Shown here piece after piece: positions 1,603-57,159 of a DNA stretch of 64,000 nt. A model generated the notes under the pieces. The model was not told the origin of the DNA. It ran no database searches and was given only the letters and a program-made list of their open reading frames with translations. The DNA lies in the IMG/VR virus record IMGVR_UViG_3300011113_000123, positions 64,001 through 128,000 of that record. The stretch is one strand, 5' to 3'. Position numbers and translations under genes: made by a program. The stretch is from a virus. Each line of letters opens with the position of its first letter. Within the stretch, counting starts at the first letter, position 1.

Positions 1603-4122
1603 ATGACGAAATTCTACACGAATGCAATTGAGTACGGTAACAACATCCTCGTCCGCGGTTACGATCGCGGGCGCCCTTTCAATGAAAAGATTCCCTACAA
1701 ACCAACTCTGTTCCTACCGTCCAAGCGCAAGGATCTTGCGACGTGGAAAGACATCGTGGGTAACACGCTTGATCCTATGCCATTTGACTCTATGCGCGAT
1801 GCTAAGGATTTCATCAAGCGATACGAGGACGTCAGCAACTTCAAGCTGTATGGTATGCCTCGCTTTCTGTATGCGTATCTGAACGAAGAGTATCCTAACG
1901 AAATCGCATACGACCAAGATCTAATCAAGGTTGCGTATATCGACATCGAGGTTAGCTCAGAGTTTGGCTTTCCTACGGTTGAGCGCGCGTCTGATACTGT
2001 TACGGCTATCACGCTCAAGAAAGACGGCGTCTTCCATGTGTGGGGATACGGCGACTTCAGGCCCAATCGCAACGACGTTCAGTATTACCAATGCAACAAC
2101 GAAAAGGAACTGCTACTCAAGTTCCTCAGTGAGTGGAGCTTAGATTATCCTGATCTCGTGACTGGCTGGAACGTCACGTTCTTCGATATTCCTTATCTCG
2201 TTCGTCGTATGAGCGCGGTGCTTGGTGAAAACGAAGCAAAACGCTTTTCGCCATGGCGCATCTTTAAGGAACGTCGTGTTCGTACGAAGTTTGGTAAAGA
2301 AGAATCCGTCTACAACATCGCTGGCGTTGCTACTCTCGACTATCTCGAGATGTATCAGAAGTTCACTTATACTCAGCAAGAAAGCTACAAGCTCGATCAC
2401 ATCGCGTTCGTTGAACTCGGTGAGCGCAAGCTATCGTACGACGAATACGAAACGTTGCATGAGTTCTATATGAATGACTTCCAGCGATTCATCGAGTATA
2501 ACATTCGAGACGTTGAGCTCGTCGAAAAGCTCGACGATAAGATGAAGCTCATATCCATGGCTCTCGCGCTAGCGTACGACGCGAAGGTGACTTTGCTTGA
2601 TGTGTTCACACAAGTTCGTATGTGGGACGTTATCATTCACAATCACCTGTACAAGCAAGGTATCGCTGTACCTATCGAAGGTGGCGGATCTAAAGACGAA
2701 GCGTATGTTGGCGCGTTCGTCAAAGAACCTAAGCCTGGTGGATATGACTGGGTTATGTCATTCGACTTGAACTCTCTGTATCCGCATCTTATCATGCAGT
2801 ACAACATCTCTCCCGAAACGTTGCTGCGTGATGGTCGCAATCGCGCAGTGAAGATTGATGTAACAGTGGATGAACTGCTCGATGGTCATATCCCTGAAGT
2901 TCCAGAAGGATATGGTCTAGCTGCGAACGGCTGTTTCTTCAGCAAAGCGCGTCAGGGTTTCTTGCCTGAGATCATGGAGCGTATGTACAACGATCGTGTC
3001 GTCTACAAAGATAAGATGATCGCTGCTCAGAAAGATTATGAAAAGACTAAGTCTAAGCAAGCATCCAAGGATATCTCTCGATACAAAAACATGCAGCTCG
3101 CTAAGAAGGTTCAGTTGAACTCAGCTTACGGCGCGATTGGTAATCCTCACTTCCGTTTCTTCGATATCAATCAAGCGACGGCTATTACTCTTGGTGGTCA
3201 GCTATCTATCCGCTGGGCTGAAAACGAAATCAATAAGTATCTTAATAAGCTCCTAAAGACTAAGGATACGGACTATGTCATTGCTTCCGATACGGATTCG
3301 TTGTATATCAGTTTTGATAGACTTGTACAAGTGGTCTTTGAAGGTCGAGGATCGCAGCAAAGTGATCCTACAGCACAGAAGCAGAAAATCGTTGACTTTC
3401 TGGACAAGGTGGCTCGTGAAAAGATTGAACCTGTTATTGATGGGATTTATTCGGATCTTGCTGTTCGGATGGAAGCATTCTCGCAAAAAATGAACATGAA
3501 GCGTGAGGTTATCGCTGATCGTGGTATCTGGACTGCGAAGAAGCGATACATCCTCAACGTTCATGACTCTGAAGGTGTGCGATACGCCAAACCCAAACTA
3601 AAGATCATGGGCATCGAAGCTGTTAAGTCGTCGACTCCTGCTGTGTGTCGTCAGGCAATTATCGATGCGCTGAACATCATCATGTCTAAAGAAGAAGAGG
3701 ACTTGCATAAGTTCATCGCTGACTTCAAGTCTAAGTTCTACAAGCTGAGCTTCGAGGAAGTTGCGTTTCCGCGTTCCGTACAAGATCTAACTAAATACGC
3801 AAAGGAAACTAAGAGCATTCCTATCCACGTTCGTGGCGCGTTGCTCTATAACAATCTAGTCAAGAAGCTTAGTCTACAGAAAAAGTACGAGCTTATCAAG
3901 GATGGCGAAAAGATTCGCTTCTCATACTTGAAGATGCCTAATCCTGCTCGCGACAACGTGATTTGTGCGTTTTCATCTTTACCGTCAGAGTTCGACCTTG
4001 AAGAGTATATCGATTATGATATGCAGTTCGAGAAAGCGTTTATGGCTCCTCTCAACTCTATCCTTGAAGTGATTGACTGGCACTCTGAGAAGCGAAGCTC
4101 ATTGGAGGACTTCTTTTCATGA
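1603..4122 (+). CDS. 43: family B DNA polymerase (T4 gp43-like)
   Basis: DIE exonuclease, SFDLNSLYPH, KKVQLNSAYG, SDTDS, KKRY motifs; C-terminal SLEDFFS clamp-binding tail. Confidence 0.98.
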   Translation: MTKFYTNAIEYGNNILVRGYDRGRPFNEKIPYKPTLFLPSKRKDLATWKDIVGNTLDPMPFDSMRDAKDFIKRYEDVSNFKLYGMPRFLYAYLNEEYPNEIAYDQDLIKVAYIDIEVSSEFGFPTVERASDTVTAITLKKDGVFHVWGYGDFRPNRNDVQYYQCNNEKELLLKFLSEWSLDYPDLVTGWNVTFFDIPYLVRRMSAVLGENEAKRFSPWRIFKERRVRTKFGKEESVYNIAGVATLDYLEMYQKFTYTQQESYKLDHIAFVELGERKLSYDEYETLHEFYMNDFQRFIEYNIRDVELVEKLDDKMKLISMALALAYDAKVTLLDVFTQVRMWDVIIHNHLYKQGIAVPIEGGGSKDEAYVGAFVKEPKPGGYDWVMSFDLNSLYPHLIMQYNISPETLLRDGRNRAVKIDVTVDELLDGHIPEVPEGYGLAANGCFFSKARQGFLPEIMERMYNDRVVYKDKMIAAQKDYEKTKSKQASKDISRYKNMQLAKKVQLNSAYGAIGNPHFRFFDINQATAITLGGQLSIRWAENEINKYLNKLLKTKDTDYVIASDTDSLYISFDRLVQVVFEGRGSQQSDPTAQKQKIVDFLDKVAREKIEPVIDGIYSDLAVRMEAFSQKMNMKREVIADRGIWTAKKRYILNVHDSEGVRYAKPKLKIMGIEAVKSSTPAVCRQAIIDALNIIMSKEEEDLHKFIADFKSKFYKLSFEEVAFPRSVQDLTKYAKETKSIPIHVRGALLYNNLVKKLSLQKKYELIKDGEKIRFSYLKMPNPARDNVICAFSSLPSEFDLEEYIDYDMQFEKAFMAPLNSILEVIDWHSEKRSSLEDFFS

Positions 4123-45099: not shown

Positions 45100-45576
45100 A
45101 TGATGAAAAACATGAATCTAGATGAAGTCCGCGAGTTCATTCGTAACACTTCTGACGAAACTTGCATCTATATCGGCGCTGACAGTGAACGCTATTGTGG
45201 AAAAAATAATCTGTGGTACGCCGACTACACGCTGGCTGTCGTGATTCACTACGACGGATCGCGCGGATGTAAGGTGTTTGGTAAGATGGAAACCGAACGC
45301 GACTATGATCAGCGTAAGGATCGTCCAGCTTATCGCTTAATGAACGAAGTGTATAAGGTTGCTCAGCTATACATGGATCTGGCTGAAGCGATTGGAGATA
45401 GACACGCTGAAGTTCATCTCGATATCAACCCTGATATTATCCACGGCAGCAGCTGCGTGGTGCAGCAAGCTGTCGGATACATTCGAGGAACGTGTAACGT
45501 TGTGCCTCGAGTGAAACCCGACGCTTTTGCTGCTTCTTATGCAGCTGATAGATTAAAGGAGATTCTTACCGCATGA
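45100..45576 (+). CDS. RNase H-like YkuK (DUF458) protein
   Basis: YIGADSE, RLMNEV, EVHLDIN, AASYAAD. Confidence 0.85.
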   Translation: MMKNMNLDEVREFIRNTSDETCIYIGADSERYCGKNNLWYADYTLAVVIHYDGSRGCKVFGKMETERDYDQRKDRPAYRLMNEVYKVAQLYMDLAEAIGDRHAEVHLDINPDIIHGSSCVVQQAVGYIRGTCNVVPRVKPDAFAASYAADRLKEILTA

Positions 45577-46163
45577 TTACGATAGAAAACTTCATCCTCC
45601 AATATGATAATCTTTTCTCAGCTCAGGAGTGCCAGCAGTTCATCGATTCATTCAATCGTATGGAGCGCGCTGGCTTCACGATCAGTCGTCAGAAAGAAGG
45701 AAATTCGTCGACTGTAAAGAAAGACGATCAGTTCTACTTCTCAGATTTCTTGTCTGGAATGGAACTGGATATATCTGACATAGCACCATTCAAGATGATG
45801 ACGGAGCGTTTCTGGAATAACGTATATCCAGCTTATGCTGAGCAGTATGGCGCTTTGAATCAAATGGCAAACATGACGGTTCGTTTGGCTAAGATTCAGA
45901 AGACTGAGATTGGTGGCGGATATCACATCTGGCACAATGAAGATGATACGCCACAAAACATGCGTCGCGTGGCTACGTTCATTCTGTATCTAAACGATGT
46001 GGATGAAGGCGGAGAGACGGAGTTCTTGTATTACCCAAAGCGAGTTAAGGCTAAAACTGGCAGATTCATTCTGTGGCCTGCTGGCTACACCCACACTCAT
46101 CGCGGCAATCCGCCAATCAGCAATACCAAATATATCGTCACTGGCTGGATGGAAATGACTTGA
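45573..46163 (+). CDS. 2OG-Fe(II) oxygenase
   Basis: WHNED, YLNDVDEGGETEF, HTHRGNPP, KYIVTGW. Confidence 0.9.
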   Translation: MITIENFILQYDNLFSAQECQQFIDSFNRMERAGFTISRQKEGNSSTVKKDDQFYFSDFLSGMELDISDIAPFKMMTERFWNNVYPAYAEQYGALNQMANMTVRLAKIQKTEIGGGYHIWHNEDDTPQNMRRVATFILYLNDVDEGGETEFLYYPKRVKAKTGRFILWPAGYTHTHRGNPPISNTKYIVTGWMEMT

Positions 46164-46188
46164 CAACCTGACCTTTTGTGCATATAAT
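46160..46188 (+). promoter_or_regulatory. perfect sigma70 promoter
   Basis: TTGACA-N17-TATAAT. Confidence 0.8.
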
Positions 46189-46213
46189 TGATATTGTCAT
46201 GAGGGGTCAGTAT

Positions 46214-46606
46214 ATGGCTATCTTACCAATCTACTACACCACTACCAACATGCGTAAGCGTAAGACTCGTAAGCCAACTCAGGCTATGATTGAGTCTCAG
46301 CGTAAGACACAAGAGTTGCTTGATCGTGTAGGCTATCGTAAGCCAACCAAAACGACTAAGAAATTCACATACTCACTCGAAGTAGAGTCTAATGCAGCTC
46401 CTATGTCTAACACCATTCCTGGTGGCATAGCTGCCAAGCGTGATAAGCTGAACGATCATAAATGGAAACGTGGTGCAGAAGAGTCTGCTGCTACTGTCAA
46501 AGCTATCGAGGATAAGGCTAAACGTCTTGCTCCTGCATTCAACAAAGGTGCAGTGCAATATATCACTGATGAAACTGATGCTAAGTATCTTGGGAGGAAG
46601 GTATGA
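46214..46606 (+). CDS. basic hypothetical protein
   Basis: GAGGGG RBS; APAFNKGAVQYI. Confidence 0.75.
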   Translation: MAILPIYYTTTNMRKRKTRKPTQAMIESQRKTQELLDRVGYRKPTKTTKKFTYSLEVESNAAPMSNTIPGGIAAKRDKLNDHKWKRGAEESAATVKAIEDKAKRLAPAFNKGAVQYITDETDAKYLGRKV

Positions 46607-46788
46607 ACTTGAAGTATCCAGCTCTATTTATTCTGCTTGCTGCTGGGTTAGGATTGATCAGCGTTGTCTATAAGATAGCGATAACGTTCTGGTCTGACGA
46701 TATGCTGCTAGTGTTCTGCGTTGGTTGTATGTTCGTGTCAGAATACCTGTCATGGATTAACTATTGGATGGAAAGGTACTGGAAATGA
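46603..46788 (+). CDS. small membrane protein
   Basis: two hydrophobic segments. Confidence 0.6.
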   Translation: MNLKYPALFILLAAGLGLISVVYKIAITFWSDDMLLVFCVGCMFVSEYLSWINYWMERYWK

Positions 46789-47033
46789 TTTTGACTAAGG
46801 AAGCGCTCGCTGAAATGCTTCGTGGTGATAAGCTGGAAGTATGTTTCACAAAGAAGGATGGCACCAATCGTGTTATGAACTGCACGTTGCAGGAAAACTT
46901 CCTACCTGTGTTTCAGGGTGCAGAAACTCGTAAGGAGAATCCCGAAGTGCTTGCTGTTTGGGATATAGATAATAATGGATGGCGTTCGTTTCGCCTCGAT
47001 TCTATTACTTCTGTGAGGATTGTTAATGACTAA
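46785..47033 (+). CDS. WYL-like/SH3 beta-barrel protein
   Basis: FTKKDGTNRVMNCT, VWDIDNNGWRSF. Confidence 0.8.
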   Translation: MILTKEALAEMLRGDKLEVCFTKKDGTNRVMNCTLQENFLPVFQGAETRKENPEVLAVWDIDNNGWRSFRLDSITSVRIVND

Positions 47034-48030
47034 ACTGAATATCGTCGGACTGAAAAACTCTGCAACCAAAGCTAAAGATATGGAGCCAGCAGAGAACGGA
47101 ACGTATGCTCATATTGGTTCCAAGGGTGGAACTGAGCAGATGTACGAAGGGCTCATGGCTCGACTACCTACAGAACTGACTGATAAGTTCAATATCATCT
47201 GCTCGCGCGTGCGCGAAGAAAATATCAGCAAGACTAAGAAGAATATCCTATGGCTCCACGACACATGGGATGATCCAGAGTCGCAGCACCTAAAGGATCG
47301 TAAAAGCCTTGACCGATTCGAGAAACTCGTATTCGTATCACACTATCAGCAATCTACTTACAATCTCGGGCTTGGAGTACCCTATGACAAGGGCGTCGTT
47401 ATCCAGAACGCGATCGTTCCTATCGAGCCTCATGAGAAGCCGCAGGGATCGACAATCAACCTTATCTATCATACCACTCCACATCGCGGACTGGAACTTC
47501 TGATTCCTGTATGCGAGTTCCTTGCTGATAAGGGATTAGACTTCCATCTCGACGTATATTCGTCGTTCAGTATCTATGGATGGCCTGATAGAGACGCTCA
47601 GTTCCAAAGCGTATTCGAGCGTATCAAGAATCATCCTAAGATGACGTATCATGGCTTCCAGCCAAACTCCGTTATCCGCGAAGCTCTGAAGAAGGCGCAC
47701 GTATACACGTATCCGTCGATTTGGCCTGAGACTTCTGGTATCTCAGTGATCGAGGCTATGAGCGCTGGCTGTAACGTTATCTGCCCAACGCTGGCTGCGT
47801 TACCTGAGACTACAGCCAACTTCGCGGTTCAGTATGGCTGGACTGAGGATAATAACAAGCACGCCAATATGTTCGCTGGCATCCTAGCCATGGTTATCCA
47901 GCAGTATCGTAGCCAATTCAACCAAGAGCGGCTCAAGTTCCAGAAAGCCTACTTTGATTCGTTCTACAATTGGGATACTAGAGCTAGACAGTGGCAGGAC
48001 TTCCTAACCTCCCTGAATAGGGGCCCTTGA
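47026..48030 (+). CDS. GT4-like glycosyltransferase
   Basis: GGTEQ, YHTTPHRGL, YPSIWPETSGISVIEAMSAG. Confidence 0.88.
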   Translation: MTKLNIVGLKNSATKAKDMEPAENGTYAHIGSKGGTEQMYEGLMARLPTELTDKFNIICSRVREENISKTKKNILWLHDTWDDPESQHLKDRKSLDRFEKLVFVSHYQQSTYNLGLGVPYDKGVVIQNAIVPIEPHEKPQGSTINLIYHTTPHRGLELLIPVCEFLADKGLDFHLDVYSSFSIYGWPDRDAQFQSVFERIKNHPKMTYHGFQPNSVIREALKKAHVYTYPSIWPETSGISVIEAMSAGCNVICPTLAALPETTANFAVQYGWTEDNNKHANMFAGILAMVIQQYRSQFNQERLKFQKAYFDSFYNWDTRARQWQDFLTSLNRGP

Positions 48031-51079: not shown

Positions 51080-51387
51080 TGTCCAAGCTCGTTATGGTCG
51101 ACGTTCTTTCTTCGTTTCGTTTGCGCTACGTAGTTCGTGCAAACACTGTTGAAGACGCGCTCGATGAAGTTGTGATGCGCGAAAACGATGCTGACTTCAA
51201 GGAGTTCAGTCAGAAGCACCTCGAACCAACAGCGATCATCGATCATCGCGAAATCACTGAAGAGGAGTATCTTCAGATCTTCAGTGAAGACAACGACTAT
51301 CTGAAGACCTGGACGGACGAGCAGAAGAGGAATTATATCAACGTGATTGACTATTACGAACAGAAGGAGAATAAACATGGCGCTTGA
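51079..51387 (+). CDS. hypothetical protein
   Basis: coupled ORF. Confidence 0.7.
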   Translation: MSKLVMVDVLSSFRLRYVVRANTVEDALDEVVMRENDADFKEFSQKHLEPTAIIDHREITEEEYLQIFSEDNDYLKTWTDEQKRNYINVIDYYEQKENKHGA

Positions 51388-51940
51388 TACCAATAAGTGC
51401 ATGGCAAATATCGTATCGAAGATTGAAGCACAGACTACCGTCGAAAAGCAGGTTGAGTTTCTTCAGTTGCATAGTTCATATGCTTTGAAGGCTGTACTGG
51501 GTTATGGTATGGATCCGAACGTGAAGTGGTTGCTTCCTGATGGTGATCCGCCGTATCGCGGTTTGTTTGACGCTTCTGACCAGGAAGGTCGTTTCTATGT
51601 CGAGTGCAAGAAGCTGATCTATTTCGTTGATAGTGAAGAAGGTCGTCAGGTTAAGCAGATCAAGCGTGAACAGTTGTTCATCCAGGTGCTTGAGTCTATT
51701 GATGCTCGCGACGCGAAGCTGCTTCTTCGCATGAAGAATCGTCAGATCAATATCAAGCCCGAAGCTATCGCTCAGGCGTTCCCTAACATGTGGGAAGCGT
51801 GGGGTCGTACTGTTGCGAAGCCGGTCGTGATCCAGGAGGTAGCTCCTCAGGAAACTCCTTTTCGTACCGAAGAAGCAGAAGTTCCTGTCAAGCGTGGTCG
51901 CGGGCGCCCTAAGGGTTCTACTAAGAAGGAAGTAGCATGA
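51377..51940 (+). CDS. conserved T4-like protein with C-terminal AT-hook
   Basis: WLLPDGDPPY, KREQLFIQVLES; KRGRGRPKGS. Confidence 0.75.
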   Translation: MALDTNKCMANIVSKIEAQTTVEKQVEFLQLHSSYALKAVLGYGMDPNVKWLLPDGDPPYRGLFDASDQEGRFYVECKKLIYFVDSEEGRQVKQIKREQLFIQVLESIDARDAKLLLRMKNRQINIKPEAIAQAFPNMWEAWGRTVAKPVVIQEVAPQETPFRTEEAEVPVKRGRGRPKGSTKKEVA

Positions 51941-52515
51941 ACACCGCCTTTATCATTGGTAACGGAACGAGTCGCTCTGACTTCGACCTAAAGAGGCTCA
52001 AGCCTTATGGAACGATCTATGGATGTAATGCGCTTTATCGTGATTTCCCTGATCACTCTATTCCTGACTTCCTCGTTGCTATTGATGACGGTATTATTGC
52101 AGAGATAGAATTCAGTAGGTTCCCGTCTAATCGTTTCATCGTTCCACCGATTGATGAGCGCTGGGAACCTTCTGAGTGTAACATCGGTCGCCCTCGTAGC
52201 AACGCTGGTATGAATGCTATGCGTGAGGCTATCAAGGCTGGGCATAATCAGCTGATCTGTCTTGGGTTTGACTTCCTCATTGGTGGTAAGAATCAGTTCT
52301 TGTCGAATCTGTATGACGGCACCGAGAACTATGGTCCAGACACTCGCGCGAGCGCGGGAGACAATCCTGGTCGTGTCAACTATCTTCAGTGGTTGGTACG
52401 TAAGCATCCAGACGTTGACTTTATCTTTATCTATCCAGATATCGAAAATGTGACAGTGATTAACGGCGATAATGTCTATTACAACACATTTGAAAAACTC
52501 TTGAAACATACATAG
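51937..52515 (+). CDS. glycosyltransferase-like Rossmann protein
   Basis: IIGNGTSR, YGCNALYRD, LGFD, NLYDGT. Confidence 0.65.
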   Translation: MNTAFIIGNGTSRSDFDLKRLKPYGTIYGCNALYRDFPDHSIPDFLVAIDDGIIAEIEFSRFPSNRFIVPPIDERWEPSECNIGRPRSNAGMNAMREAIKAGHNQLICLGFDFLIGGKNQFLSNLYDGTENYGPDTRASAGDNPGRVNYLQWLVRKHPDVDFIFIYPDIENVTVINGDNVYYNTFEKLLKHT

Positions 52516-52544: not shown

Positions 52545-53954
52545 ATGGTTAAGAAAATCTATCTTGAACATTCAGATCGAAACAAGATGGATCACTTGTT
52601 GGGTAAGTTCCTCGATCACGACTGCTATGATCTAGTGCTCACCGAGGATACCGATGTTTACGAACCACTGACTCAGTTGCAGATTGACCAGGGCGAAACA
52701 CACAGCGAAAAGAATCTGCTATGTAAGTTCCGTAAAGGTGTGTTCAGCAAAGAAATGACGGACGCGGCATATAAGGCGCTGCGTTCTGGTGCCATCATGT
52801 CAGACAATCGTGGTCTTGCTGCTGGTATCTTTCGCGACACAGCATATCAGAAGCTGCCTGACGGCGAAGGTTCTCGTCGTTGGGTTACAGAGCGCGAGAG
52901 AGCTGTCCTTCAGTATATGTTGAAGGATTCTCCTAAGACTGTTAATGAAGAAGATCAGTTAGAAGAGATCTATAAGAGTAATCCAGACACTCCTCTTCAG
53001 GGGCGCGGTTCTGGAGCGCATAAAGCTAAGGGTGATATTGGCGCAGGTGCTATCTGGATTGTTAACAAGTCGAAAGACTTTGTTTTCGATGACTGGTACA
53101 ACTCTGTAAAAGATAAGAGCCCGGCTGAGCGTCGTATGGCTGCGGATCATATTCTCAATGATCTAATCTCAGACACGACTTATGCTAACGGTGTTCGCTC
53201 AGGCGTTGGTGGCTTCATGGATCGTTATCCGCGTATTCCGTTCTGTCGCGAGACAGGTTGGAGTGCGAGCCATCATAAGCTATACGAAGCTGCGCTTCCG
53301 TTGTTTGAACAGGCTTCGAAAGTGTTCGAGGAAAATCTACCAGTGCGCTTTGCTGGTCAGATGGAAGCTATGAAGCAGCTTGGTCCAGATTGGCAAATCG
53401 GTAACACGCCATACACTACTCTAACCATCAATCGCGACTTCCGCACAGCTGCTCATCGCGACGTTGGTGATCTGTGTGAGTCGTGGGAGTCTCATGCAAA
53501 TCCACGCGGCTTCTCGAATCTGCTAGTATTAGACAACGGAAAGAGCTATAATGGATTCTATCTTTGCTTCCCTGAGTTTCGTGTAGCGGCTGATATTCGT
53601 GCTGGCGATATGATTATGATGAACGCACATCGTATTCATAGCAACAGCCCAGCCTTCGACTACGAAGAAGGCTTCGAGCGTATGTCAGTTGTGATGTACT
53701 TCCGCGAGTCTATGCTGGAGTGTGGTAGCCGTAAGTATGAAGATACACGTCGCAGCTTCGTGTACATGCGCGCGAACAACAAAGAACATCCTTTGTGGAA
53801 AGAAGGATGGAATGGTGTATCGCCTGGAATGTGGGATACTGAAGAATGGGGTGAGTACCTCGGAAACAATGGTCTCACTGACGAAGCAGAAGAAGTCCTA
53901 AGTAAGATTGGTAAGAGTGATCGATTAGTAACTCTCGAAGATTACTTTGCATAA
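52545..53954 (+). CDS. TET/JBP-family 2OG-Fe(II) nucleic-acid dioxygenase
   Basis: TTLTINRDFRTAAHRD (HxD), IHSN, ERMSVVMYFRE; CRETGW. Confidence 0.88.
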   Translation: MVKKIYLEHSDRNKMDHLLGKFLDHDCYDLVLTEDTDVYEPLTQLQIDQGETHSEKNLLCKFRKGVFSKEMTDAAYKALRSGAIMSDNRGLAAGIFRDTAYQKLPDGEGSRRWVTERERAVLQYMLKDSPKTVNEEDQLEEIYKSNPDTPLQGRGSGAHKAKGDIGAGAIWIVNKSKDFVFDDWYNSVKDKSPAERRMAADHILNDLISDTTYANGVRSGVGGFMDRYPRIPFCRETGWSASHHKLYEAALPLFEQASKVFEENLPVRFAGQMEAMKQLGPDWQIGNTPYTTLTINRDFRTAAHRDVGDLCESWESHANPRGFSNLLVLDNGKSYNGFYLCFPEFRVAADIRAGDMIMMNAHRIHSNSPAFDYEEGFERMSVVMYFRESMLECGSRKYEDTRRSFVYMRANNKEHPLWKEGWNGVSPGMWDTEEWGEYLGNNGLTDEAEEVLSKIGKSDRLVTLEDYFA

Positions 53955-53969
53955 ATCAAGAGGTCGTTA

Positions 53970-55532
53970 ATGTATTGCGTGATTCCTGCGGCAGGGCGCG
54001 GTGTTCGTTTCAACGAACTAGGTAAGAACTATCCGAAGTGCGTCCTGCCATATAAAGATATTCCAATCATCGTTCATAACATTAGACTGGCTCTCGATTC
54101 GGGAGCCAGAGAAGTTTCTATAGTCGTCGGTCATCAGGGTGATAAGATTCGTGAGATCGTCGGAATGTACTTTCCGGAAGATCCGCGCATCATCTTCTCG
54201 GAGTATCAAGAAACAGCCTCAATAGGTGGTCCTGGCGTTTCAATCTACTGCGGTATCCCTGATGACATCGGTGATGAGTCTGTCCTGATTCTTCTTTCCG
54301 ATATCGTCGTAGAACATGTTTTGATTAACAATTCTAAAACATCCTGGATTTCTGTTCAGCAAGTTCCTGATTGGGAACGCTGGTGTATGGCTGAGACTAA
54401 AGATGGAACAATCGTAAAGTTCCACGATAAGCCGCGCGATATGCCTCCGACTAGTCATGCGGTCAGCGGAGTCTATTACTTTAGAAACGCATCGTTGTTC
54501 CGTAGTTGTTTGATTGATGCTATCAAAGATACTCGTTATGGCGAAGTTCAGATTTCTTCAGCGATGTCGCGCTATATGGAAAAGGAATCTATCTATACGA
54601 AGCCAATCAGGATCGTCGATTTCGGTACGTTGCAAGAGTATCTCGAGAATCGTGGTGTAAAGAACTCGCGTTCGTTCAATACGCTCTATCATTCTGGTGA
54701 TGAAACTACGATCACGAAAACATCTGTTGCTCATCCAGAAAAGATTCATGCGGAAGCTAACTGGTACGACAATCTTCCGACGCCTATCAAGATGATGACA
54801 CCTCGCATCTTTGATAAGACGTTGTATGGTGATCGACCAATGTATACGATGGAGCGTATCGACAGCCCTACGTTGCGTGAGCTATATCTGTATCTCGAAT
54901 CTGATCCTATCTTCTGGGCTGAAATCTTTACGAAACTCTTTGATCTAACCGACAAGTTCAAGTTCTACACGAAGCCTGGTAAGCCAGAGTTCTTCGATCG
55001 TGTCGTAGACAAGACGTTCTCGAGATTCACAGAAGTCGATGCTGATCTCATAGAGAACGACGATCATGCGTTCATGAACAAGTTCTATGAAATGAATCAG
55101 CAGGGTATGTTCAACGTATTCCCTGACTCCCTGTTCCATGGCGACTTCTGCTTCTCTAACATCTTCTATCATCCAGGCAGCAAGCATATCAAGTTCATCG
55201 ATCCGCGCGGCGACGCGTATGGTAACATCTTGTATGACTTGGCTAAGATCACACATTCAGCATACTACCCATACGATTATGTTGATGCGGAACTCTATCT
55301 AAATAAGAGTGGCGAAAAGCTATACATCTTCGATAGTGGCAAAGAAGTCGCTCGCGAAGCGTACAAGAAGCTCTTCGTTGCCAAATACGGTGAGTCAACG
55401 TGGCAGATCAATTTGTTCTTGACAGCTACTCTGTTTTTGAGTATGATTCCCTTACACTCACACAATAAGGTCAACCAAGAGTTATTCTATGCGCTCTATC
55501 GTAAGGCGGCCGCAGACAGCGGATTTGTTTGA
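53970..55532 (+). CDS. sugar-phosphate nucleotidyltransferase fused to APH/choline-kinase-like domain
   Basis: IPAAGRGVRF...PK, DFGT; HGDFCFSNI, IDPRG, YDLAK. Confidence 0.9.
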   Translation: MYCVIPAAGRGVRFNELGKNYPKCVLPYKDIPIIVHNIRLALDSGAREVSIVVGHQGDKIREIVGMYFPEDPRIIFSEYQETASIGGPGVSIYCGIPDDIGDESVLILLSDIVVEHVLINNSKTSWISVQQVPDWERWCMAETKDGTIVKFHDKPRDMPPTSHAVSGVYYFRNASLFRSCLIDAIKDTRYGEVQISSAMSRYMEKESIYTKPIRIVDFGTLQEYLENRGVKNSRSFNTLYHSGDETTITKTSVAHPEKIHAEANWYDNLPTPIKMMTPRIFDKTLYGDRPMYTMERIDSPTLRELYLYLESDPIFWAEIFTKLFDLTDKFKFYTKPGKPEFFDRVVDKTFSRFTEVDADLIENDDHAFMNKFYEMNQQGMFNVFPDSLFHGDFCFSNIFYHPGSKHIKFIDPRGDAYGNILYDLAKITHSAYYPYDYVDAELYLNKSGEKLYIFDSGKEVAREAYKKLFVAKYGESTWQINLFLTATLFLSMIPLHSHNKVNQELFYALYRKAAADSGFV

Positions 55533-55881
55533 ACTTAGCCTCGTGGTTGATCTGGACCACACACTATGCGTTGGCGATCTTAGTATAGCGAGTTCAGCTG
55601 AACGATACGCCAACGCAAAGCCAATTGCAGAAACAATCAAGAAATTACAAGAAGCGTACAGTAACGGCTGGTACATCACCATTCTTACTGCACGTCATAT
55701 GCGTTCTTGTCAAAACGATGCAGAGTTTGCGTTCGAGAAGCTAGGTAAGATCACTGAAGACTGGCTTGATCGACACGACGTTCCCTTCGATCAGCTTGTC
55801 TTTGGTAAGCCATATGGTATGTGGTACATCGACGATAAAGCAATGACACTGGATACCTTCCTACATGAATTCCAAGCCTAA
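55525..55881 (+). CDS. small HAD phosphatase (capsule-biosynthesis phosphatase type)
   Basis: DLDHT, TAR, FGKP, YIDDKA; probable TTG start. Confidence 0.85.
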   Translation: MFELSLVVDLDHTLCVGDLSIASSAERYANAKPIAETIKKLQEAYSNGWYITILTARHMRSCQNDAEFAFEKLGKITEDWLDRHDVPFDQLVFGKPYGMWYIDDKAMTLDTFLHEFQA

Positions 55882-56695
55882 GATTATCATCACTACGTTC
55901 ATGCGCGAGGACAAGCAGAAAGCTGTGTTCCAGATTCCTGCTTCGCTGCATGAAAACGTTTATATGTTCACTCGCGAAGATCGCGTCGATGAGCTGCGTA
56001 AGTATGTTCCCGAAACGATTCGCATCATCGGTAATCCGATGGATATCGACGGTATCGCTGATATCCGTCAGCGTTGTATCGATCATGTTCCGAAGGGTAA
56101 GGTGTGGTTCATCGACGATCTCGCTACGTTTGGTTGGCGCGATCAGAATCTAAAGCAGTTCAACGATATGCCCGAGCAGAAGTTCGTTGAGATGTATGCC
56201 ACGCTCGACAAAATGCTCGACGACTATATGCAAGTCGGTTTCTCAGCTCGTGGTGGCAACAATCACGTGACTGATCCGTTCAAGGAAGTTGGTCGTGCAT
56301 ACACCACATATGGATTGCGCTCAGACTGGATGGAGCGTGAGGATATTCGATTCGATGGTATGTATCGACAGAATCCTAACGTGAAGCTCTACGAAGACTA
56401 CTGGATCACGCTCTCCATGCTGACCAAGGGTTTCAAGAACGCTATCATCTACGACTATTTCTTCAACTACACTCACAACAACACAGGCGGCAATTCTACG
56501 TTCCGTACGCTAGAACTCCAGGAGCAAGCCGCTCACGAACTCCATAGACACTTCCCACAATTCGTCACAGTAGAAACGAAGGAAGGGGTATGGGGAAAGA
56601 TGGGCATGGAGAATCGTAAGGAAGTTCGCATTCAATGGCAGAAAGCATATCAAAGCTCACAGGTCACTAACACGCTCGACTCGTTCTTCGAATAA
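55865..56695 (+). CDS. TET-associated (TAGT-like) GT-A glycosyltransferase
   Basis: GIADIRQ, FIDD, YEDY, GGNSTFR, KEVRIQWQKAY; in an operon with TET/JBP. Confidence 0.8.
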   Translation: MNSKPKIIITTFMREDKQKAVFQIPASLHENVYMFTREDRVDELRKYVPETIRIIGNPMDIDGIADIRQRCIDHVPKGKVWFIDDLATFGWRDQNLKQFNDMPEQKFVEMYATLDKMLDDYMQVGFSARGGNNHVTDPFKEVGRAYTTYGLRSDWMEREDIRFDGMYRQNPNVKLYEDYWITLSMLTKGFKNAIIYDYFFNYTHNNTGGNSTFRTLELQEQAAHELHRHFPQFVTVETKEGVWGKMGMENRKEVRIQWQKAYQSSQVTNTLDSFFE

Positions 56696-56706
56696 CAGGA
56701 AATCCT

Positions 56707-57159
56707 ATGAACACCGGAATAGGCTATGTCGAATATCGTAATCTGTTTGAGGGCATCCGTAGAGAAAAGCCAGGAGACGAAAGATATCTAATCTACTTCG
56801 GTCGAGCCCATGTTCAAGATCACATAACTAAAGTTGTTTCTAGGGGCCCACTGAAGATTGGTCGAGGAAAGTTCGCAACTGCTCTGATGCGCGGGAGGAA
56901 TCAGCCTGGAGTAGACTTTCGCATATATTCAGAAATCATCGTTCCTTACAATCAAGACACATACGATTGTGAACAACTGATAAAGTCTGTTCTGAAACAT
57001 CGTAACATGAAGATGTCGCAGAACCAGCAGGAACTTTATGATATCAGAGACGAAGAGCTCGAACAAACAGTCAGCGCGATAGTTGAAATCATAAAGGCAG
57101 AAATGCCTGACATCAAGCTGCTGGAAGTTAACAACTACTTTCTAAAAAAGGAAACCTAA
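56707..57159 (+). CDS. hypothetical protein, possible GIY-YIG/T5orf172-like nuclease
   Basis: YLIYF...LKIGRG...R...CEQ...ELY spacing. Confidence 0.45.
   Translation: MNTGIGYVEYRNLFEGIRREKPGDERYLIYFGRAHVQDHITKVVSRGPLKIGRGKFATALMRGRNQPGVDFRIYSEIIVPYNQDTYDCEQLIKSVLKHRNMKMSQNQQELYDIRDEELEQTVSAIVEIIKAEMPDIKLLEVNNYFLKKET

Follow-up and report, generated by a model that had tools for sequence, protein, structure and literature searches.

Clamp-binding-type tails on the TET dioxygenase and the TET-associated glycosyltransferase of a T4-like phage

The locus and its tails

We analysed 64,000 nucleotides (the window, bases 64001-128000) of the 157,580-bp IMG/VR virus record IMGVR_UViG_3300011113_000123 (157.6 kb), a T4-like myovirus, and asked what the C-terminal ends of two of its DNA-modifying enzymes may mean. 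These are a TET/JBP-type 5-methylpyrimidine dioxygenase (TET) and, 1.9 kb downstream of it, a TET-associated glycosyltransferase (TAGT), separated by the genes of two enzymes of presumed sugar supply (Table 1). Nearly all genes of the window lie on the + strand.

A reading made earlier from the letters of the window (the sequence-only reading below) had claimed that both enzymes end in the same kind of peptide as the DNA polymerase gp43, and the translations agree to the letter: gp43 ends in SLEDFFS, TET in TLEDYFA and TAGT in TLDSFFE. All three ends fit the pattern [ST]L[DE]x[FY]F followed by one residue. In TET the core extends to about residue 454 and is followed by a coil (residues 455-463) and the tail. 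The columns of H304, D306, H365 and R379 are invariant in alignments of 20 to 32 homologues, and we read the first three as the HxD...H iron triad and the last as the arginine that would bind 2-oxoglutarate (2OG). The core of TAGT closes at a conserved W-x-K-A-Y, after which come a short linker and the tail; PF20691, which TAGT itself matches only marginally, is present in many of its homologues.

The strict tail pattern ends 4 of the 225 open reading frames (ORFs) of this genome, where 0.49 would be expected (Poisson P ~0.0016), and the fourth carrier is a baseplate protein. One more candidate, a 64-aa ORF ending in LLDVFF (genome 17284-17478), was set aside as probably spurious, as it lies inside a longer minus-strand ORF.

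The two enzymes encoded between TET and TAGT had been described as tail-less. This is true of the 520-aa enzyme; the HAD-like protein has no terminal tail either, with the small caveat of a motif-like internal TLDTFL six residues before its end. This peptide comes directly after the 'YIDDK' strand of the HAD core and is just half conserved among related proteins, so it probably belongs to the fold. As for gp55 and gp33, neither has the gp43-type tail in this phage: gp55 has a basic extension at its end and gp33 ends in SRLPI.

Table 1. Features of the locus and of the clamp system. Positions refer to the window unless stated otherwise.
Feature	Position	Strand	Remarks
gp45 sliding clamp	L004:10185-10850, just upstream of the window		beside gp44/62; phrog_223, 4.6e-62
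186-aa ORF	L004:10878-11438 (genome 60878-61438), just upstream of the window	+	between gp45 and gp44; no Pfam or PHROG family
gp43 family-B DNA polymerase, 839 aa	1603..4122	+	reference clamp-binding-type tail in the last 7 residues (4099-4119)
Radical-SAM protein	43529-45097
2OG-Fe(II) oxygenase	45573-46163
GT-B glycosyltransferase	47020-48030		no tail
DUF6433 protein	51347..51940	+	PF20025, 8e-21; AT-hook-like GRGRPKG at the end
192-aa ORF	51937..52515	+	no Pfam match; no tail, end conserved
TET/JBP-type 5-methylpyrimidine dioxygenase, 469 aa	52545..53954	+	PF12851, 52 bits (cut-off 34.9), residues 234-388
TET tail	53931-53951	+	residues 463-469
Bifunctional nucleotidyltransferase and APH-like kinase, 520 aa	53970..55532	+	PF00483, PF12804, weak PF01636; no tail
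HAD-like small phosphatase, 130 aa	55489..55881	+	DxDxT motif; Hydrolase_3 E 0.013, below cut-off
TAGT, 276 aa	55865..56695	+	PF20691, 29.4 bits (cut-off 27.5), marginal
TAGT tail	56672-56692	+
150-aa ORF	56707-57159		directly after TAGT; weak T5orf172 (GIY-YIG-related) match, E 0.0032, below cut-off
gp33	genome 136399-136632 (L118)		PF16805 match
T4 baseplate protein family	L006:3829-4536 (genome 143829-144536)	-	PF12322

The clamp system

The replication genes of the phage are of the T4 type. Its gp43 is about 51% identical over the full length to the gp43 of marine cyanomyoviruses and of the Methylophilales phage Melnitz. Just upstream of the window lie regA, gp45 and the clamp loader genes gp44 (phrog_168) and gp62 (phrog_225). 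The assignment of gp45 is based on its PHROG match, on matches to the gp45 structures of RB69 (1b77, 3.6e-16) and T4 (1czd, 8.4e-15) and on the adjoining clamp loader; its homologues carry PF09116. Note that the N-domain model PF02916 has no match in the genome, where PHROGs and PDB did detect gp45. Both gp55 and gp33 are encoded. Judged by these matches, the phage is a T4-like one with a full clamp system. A megablast search of the cassette against phage records gave no match.

The 186-aa ORF between the clamp and loader genes ends in TLEEFLEIA. The core of its family stops at ...KYNT, and a SLEDFF-like extension is added only in a subset of members that includes this one; the protein may be a further clamp ligand.

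Conservation of the tails

We collected the 120 best homologues of TET, 116 of which are near full length. The strict gp43-type motif ends 41 of the 116, including ones at only about 40% identity, while 10 end in xLDI, 27 in LGLE(P/Q) and the remainder in other ways or without a tail. For TAGT the motif ends 54 of 67 near-full-length homologues, again down to about 40% identity. In the alignments of both families the core stops at a conserved point, the linker differs in both length and sequence, and the tail-less homologues, whose cores are complete, end right after the catalytic core. Taken together, such features are typical of a short linear motif. By sequence, the heptapeptides of TET and TAGT are of the same short-linear-motif class as the tail of the phage's own gp43, that is, hydrophobic and acidic peptides at the extreme C-terminus.

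The class of TET homologues that ends in xLDI or xLPI resembles the ends of gp33 homologues in the lineage, which are SRLPI in this phage, TLDV in phage C48C1 and QLDV in a further genome (G010). These TET ends may form a second, gp33-type class of clamp tail, which we regard as a lead.

The sequence-only reading expected such tails only in T4-like homologues, and among the genomes compared they are indeed restricted to T4-like ones. In four phages with no sign of a T4-type replisome in the regions examined, the homologues are tail-less. The tail is lacking in the TET homologues of S-CBWM1, HTVC112P and P12024L, and in the TAGT homologues of RSL1, LuckyBarnes, PhiJL001 and the 40-kb myovirus ctUhy936. 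The NCBI metagenome contig SDBT01007472.1 (L117 7302-10771) has the same four-gene cassette of a short TET, an NTP-transferase, a small ORF and a TAGT, none of the four with a tail, and the 16 kb of it that were read contained no replication genes of the T4 type. It seems that the cassette moves between phage types and gains tails in T4-like phages.

In the small siphovirus P12024L of Nonlabens (L015 4718-6113) TAGT ends in QLEIF and the adjacent methyltransferase in QQTLF, both of which look similar to QL[SD]LF, the beta-clamp motif of bacteria. A phage that relies on the host for its replication might employ the same trick in a form suited to the host clamp.

Match to the resident polymerase

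We wanted to know whether the TET tail follows the gp43 tail of the same phage. For this comparison 31 genomes or contigs with both genes, representing 25 unique tail pairs, were available. With the gp43 tail of its own phage the TET tail agrees at 4.44 of 6 core positions, compared with 4.06 after shuffling (p = 0.0016), in a rough permutation test that ignores kinship, and the result is only indicative as relatedness is uncontrolled. More telling than this statistic, in our view, are rare variants that occur in pairs: in one locus (L055) both gp43 and TET end with DLF, in another (L043) both carry D-[IL]-DEFF, and in Caulobacter phage Cr30 gp43 has DLSSLF and a TAGT-like protein DLSKLF. Among cultured phages, tails are found in Stenotrophomonas phage DLP_6 (gp43, TET and TAGT) and in C48C1 (gp43 and TET).

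Census of tailed proteins

We called ORFs in 80 IMG/VR loci with TET relatives and in this genome, and took the expected number of tailed ORFs from the internal frequency of the motif. The motif ends 105 of 1264 ORFs, compared with 3.1 expected. Most carriers are TET (47) and gp43 (26), followed by TAGT or TAGT-like proteins (9), a GT-B glycosyltransferase (PF00534, about 9, of some 447 aa and directly downstream of TET), GNAT acetyltransferase-like proteins (PF00583, about 4) and an amino-acid:DNA transferase (ADDT, PF18724, about 3). Note that in each of the GT-B, GNAT and ADDT groups one or two representatives were tested against Pfam and the others assigned by size and position beside TET. 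There is also one Dam-type methylase (PF02086) and one 385-aa protein without a family. Outside the DNA-modification families, the only carriers are gp43, a baseplate family and two unassigned ORFs. On a separate T4-like Logan contig (L116), for which no close relative was found in IMG/VR, TAGT ends in SLFDMF and a 5-hydroxymethyldeoxyuridine (5-hmdU) DNA kinase in DLFSF.

Could the resemblance be due to chance or composition? The motif is short, and its excess in the single genome is modest (4 against 0.49). On the other hand, the excess in the census is large, the tail is kept at about 40% identity behind variable linkers, and it tracks the gp43 tail of its own phage. We therefore consider a chance resemblance hardly credible.

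Structure predictions

In the AlphaFold2 (AF2) models, the mean predicted local distance difference test (pLDDT) score is 83 for TET and 91.8 for TAGT, and it falls to 55 and 53, respectively, in the last block, which follows a coil. Both tails thus lie outside the confident fold, joined to the body by a flexible and variable linker as in the known clamp epitopes.

Potentially, the tail could act within the molecule, as a lid, an autoinhibitory segment or a dimer contact, and be like the gp43 tail only by coincidence. The AF2 models have a short helix in either tail, and in ParB-dependent phage 5-methylpyrimidine dioxygenases (5mYOX) a C-terminal extension is needed for activity (PMC13229309). 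However, the same heptapeptide is found on at least six unrelated folds, the tail-less homologues have full cores, and the tails have a low pLDDT of 53-55 and are set apart from the core by a coil. We regard an intramolecular role as very improbable.

A complex prediction of each tail with gp45 had been proposed as a check; it was run for TET, and its support is weak. The gp45 trimer with TET residues 440-469 reached a score of 0.59, compared with 0.01 for the best of three controls, the runs agreeing in at least 97% of contacts with a partner pLDDT of at least 54. Of the 80 solved complexes used for calibration, 58 reached the mark, as did 2 of the 110 mismatched pairs, but with a score of 0.60 or less it was reached by only 7 of these 80, and by both mismatched pairs that passed. 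Moreover, the complex of RB69 gp45 with the polymerase peptide has already been solved (1b8h), so the pass may reflect memory. The model would indicate likeness to a known complex rather than binding.

Neighbouring genes

The DUF6433 gene, the 192-aa ORF and TET form, in this order, a block that is conserved in more than 15 related loci. Wherever a relative was found to have a homologue of the 192-aa ORF, this gene lies immediately 5' of TET, and its product may be an unrecognised partner of TET. By analogy, the 520-aa nucleotidyltransferase and kinase is read as supplying a nucleoside diphosphate (NDP) sugar, as analogous bifunctional enzymes do for other phage DNA glycosylations (PMC13326640), and the HAD-like phosphatase probably belongs to the same supply. 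A tail-less C5-cytosine methyltransferase (PF00145) is encoded in the genome as well, which fits a pathway from 5-methylcytosine (5mC) via 5-hydroxymethylcytosine (5hmC) to glycosyl-5hmC (PMC8256090).

The 150-aa ORF behind TAGT, at the cassette edge, could be a gene like those of homing endonucleases. Further away, at window 43529-48030 and upstream of RNase H and MazG, there is a group of genes for a radical-SAM protein, an RNaseH-like protein, a 2OG-Fe(II) oxygenase and a GT-B glycosyltransferase; these could make up a second module, for modification or for metabolism.

Do the enzymes ride the clamp?

We consider it likely, from the comparative data, that TET and TAGT bind gp45 through their tails, which would tether these post-replicative modification enzymes to clamps on the phage DNA; most likely, the heptapeptides dock into the hydrophobic pocket of gp45. 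The premise taken from T4 holds: gp43, gp55 and gp33 dock on gp45 by their C-termini (PMC2988020). Of the claim that TET and TAGT ride the clamp, the comparative part is well founded, as the tail is conserved and modular, recurs on unrelated families and tracks gp43; the structure prediction adds little, and we infer physical binding to gp45 and any gain in the speed or completeness of modification from the comparative evidence together with the established homologous interaction.

Several observations weigh against this interpretation. The tail is evidently dispensable in evolution, as its state changes at least 16 times on a TET tree built without the tail, a rough count because the strict pattern misses relaxed tails. 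The TET subclade closest after the nearest relatives, 72-79% identical to this TET and with the same synteny, ends in LGLEPAH or LGLEQTF; the TAGT of this subclade has kept the tail. Nor is the tail universal in T4-like phages: the TAGT homologues of T-even and Acinetobacter phages have none, and among the T-even enzymes neither alpha-GT nor ba-gt ends in one, although alpha-GT binds gp45. In this phage gp55 and gp33, the classic clamp ligands, do without the gp43-type tail, and so does the C5-methyltransferase, which is a DNA enzyme too. The T4 baseplate protein family PF12322 conservedly ends in G-[LIM]-[SA]-DFF in this phage and its relatives and is the one clear carrier that does not act on DNA, and therefore the motif pattern is not perfectly specific. 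Finally, the complex prediction, the sole structural test, is weak and possibly driven by memory.

Some of these points would also suit a different explanation, namely that the tail binds another shared partner (the clamp loader, gp32, a protease adaptor or a packaging factor) or acts as a turnover signal. The baseplate family, the ends of gp55 and gp33 and the weak prediction for gp45 and TET can all be read in this way. On the other hand, the phage's own gp43 ends in this very motif, and the corresponding tails in T4 and RB69 bind gp45 (PMC2988020). The motif also follows the gp43 variants genome by genome, and DNA-modification families account for all carriers other than gp43, the baseplate family and two unassigned ORFs. 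We regard another partner or a turnover signal as quite improbable, and the same tail on several kinds of DNA-modifying enzymes in related phages suggests that hypermodification is probably done by clamp-tethered enzymes.

How would such enzymes work? Clamps loaded by gp44/62 at primer-template junctions would remain on the new phage DNA, and the trimeric clamp, with its three sites, could hold TET, TAGT or both by their flexible tails. Tethering would raise the local concentration of the enzymes and allow one-dimensional scanning of the DNA behind the fork. In this scheme the tail-less C5-methyltransferase would write 5mC, TET would oxidise it to 5hmC and TAGT would glycosylate the product with an NDP-sugar provided by the two tail-less enzymes encoded between them.

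The sequence-only reading went further and saw in clamp docking a self/non-self device that confines modification to phage DNA. In favour of this, gp45 would be loaded only by the phage replisome, so that enzymes tethered to it would gather preferentially on phage DNA as it replicates, and the tails are restricted to T4-like genomes. However, the substrate is already set by the tail-less C5-methyltransferase, there is no evident cost of modifying host DNA, a close TET subclade has dropped the tail, and for T4 alpha-GT the contact with gp45 is reported not to be the main determinant of modification levels (PMC13216743). We find the self/non-self device unsupported and consider it unlikely; at most, confinement to phage DNA would come as a by-product, and it is not a demonstrated function.

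Possibly, clamp tethering is part of a general rule in T4-like phages, although we would rather not count on it: hypermodification enzymes that act on the polymer would carry a gp43-type (SLEDFF-like) or gp33-type (TLDI/TLDV-like) tail, whereas enzymes of soluble precursors would have none. Under this tentative rule fall the dioxygenase, GT-A and GT-B glycosyltransferases, the amino-acid:DNA transferase, GNAT, Dam and perhaps the 5-hmdU DNA kinase. If it were true, the gp45 trimer would be the tool-belt of a multi-step modification line behind the fork, and the tail would predict which steps take place on DNA. The presence of a tail could help to separate DNA-level from nucleotide-sugar steps in the annotation of modification clusters.

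A clamp tether would be a concrete and testable answer to the question of how post-replicative hypermodification enzymes find the phage genome and cover it fully within minutes. Genetics is possible, as tailed TET and glycosyltransferase genes are found in the cultured Stenotrophomonas phage DLP_6 and Caulobacter phage Cr30. We found no earlier report of these tails in the openly licensed PMC and bioRxiv literature; a report elsewhere is possible.

Comparison with known systems

The closest parallel is with the clamp ligands of T4, whose gp43, gp55 and gp33 have interchangeable hydrophobic-acidic C-termini that bind gp45; the gp43 tails of both T4 and RB69 bind it and the C-terminus of gp33 is a T4 clamp epitope (PMC2988020). 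The T-even gp43 end that we read is SLDFLFG. As in T4, a short hydrophobic-acidic peptide is located at the extreme C-terminus behind a variable linker, is of one class with the gp43 tail of its own phage and occurs in a phage that encodes gp45 and gp44/62. In contrast to T4, the carriers here are base-modification enzymes and not replication or transcription factors, their binding is predicted from sequence, and the phage's own gp55 and gp33 lack the gp43-type version.

A phage DNA glycosyltransferase that touches the replicative clamp is already known: T4 alpha-GT co-purifies with and binds gp45, according to a 2026 study that confirms Sommer et al. 2004 as cited there (PMC13216743). In both cases modification is thought to follow replication. 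However, T4 alpha-GT is of another family (PF11440) and the contact was found to have small functional weight; the study concludes that expression signals, and not this contact, mainly set the T4 alpha/beta ratio (PMC13216743). Since the T-even alpha-GT that we read has no gp43-like tail, its contact with gp45 must be of another kind.

The gene content resembles that of described phage pathways, which combine a C5-methyltransferase, a TET/JBP enzyme (5mYOX), a glycosyltransferase and an NDP-sugar supply with an APH-type kinase (PMC8256090; bioRxiv 10.1101/2023.12.21.572611). Both reports already note clamp and clamp-loader genes near TET/glycosyltransferase clusters, and a keyword search of them found no mention of a clamp-binding tail. 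The phage TET and glycosyltransferase enzymes described there were purified with C-terminal His tags, that is, on the tail where one is present. As these assays contained neither clamp nor loader, native activity or processivity may be underestimated for tailed enzymes. Reliance on a DNA-clamping accessory protein and a C-terminal extension on the dioxygenase are also seen in the ParB-dependent phage T-dioxygenases, which are phage 5mYOX enzymes, but there the partner is a ParB-like CTPase and the extension is a domain rather than a heptapeptide (PMC13229309).

The finding, which is much broader than first noted, would bring an entire class of phage DNA-hypermodification enzymes under the clamp tool-belt principle. 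In eukaryotes, DNMT1 binds PCNA through a PCNA-interacting protein (PIP) box, so that a DNA-modifying enzyme is coupled to replication by a clamp-binding peptide. The motif, the clamp and the biology are different and the peptide is N-terminal, so the likeness is one of analogy only. With T4 alpha-GT and DNMT1/PCNA as precedents, clamp-riding TET and TAGT would be the extension of a known principle and not a new one.

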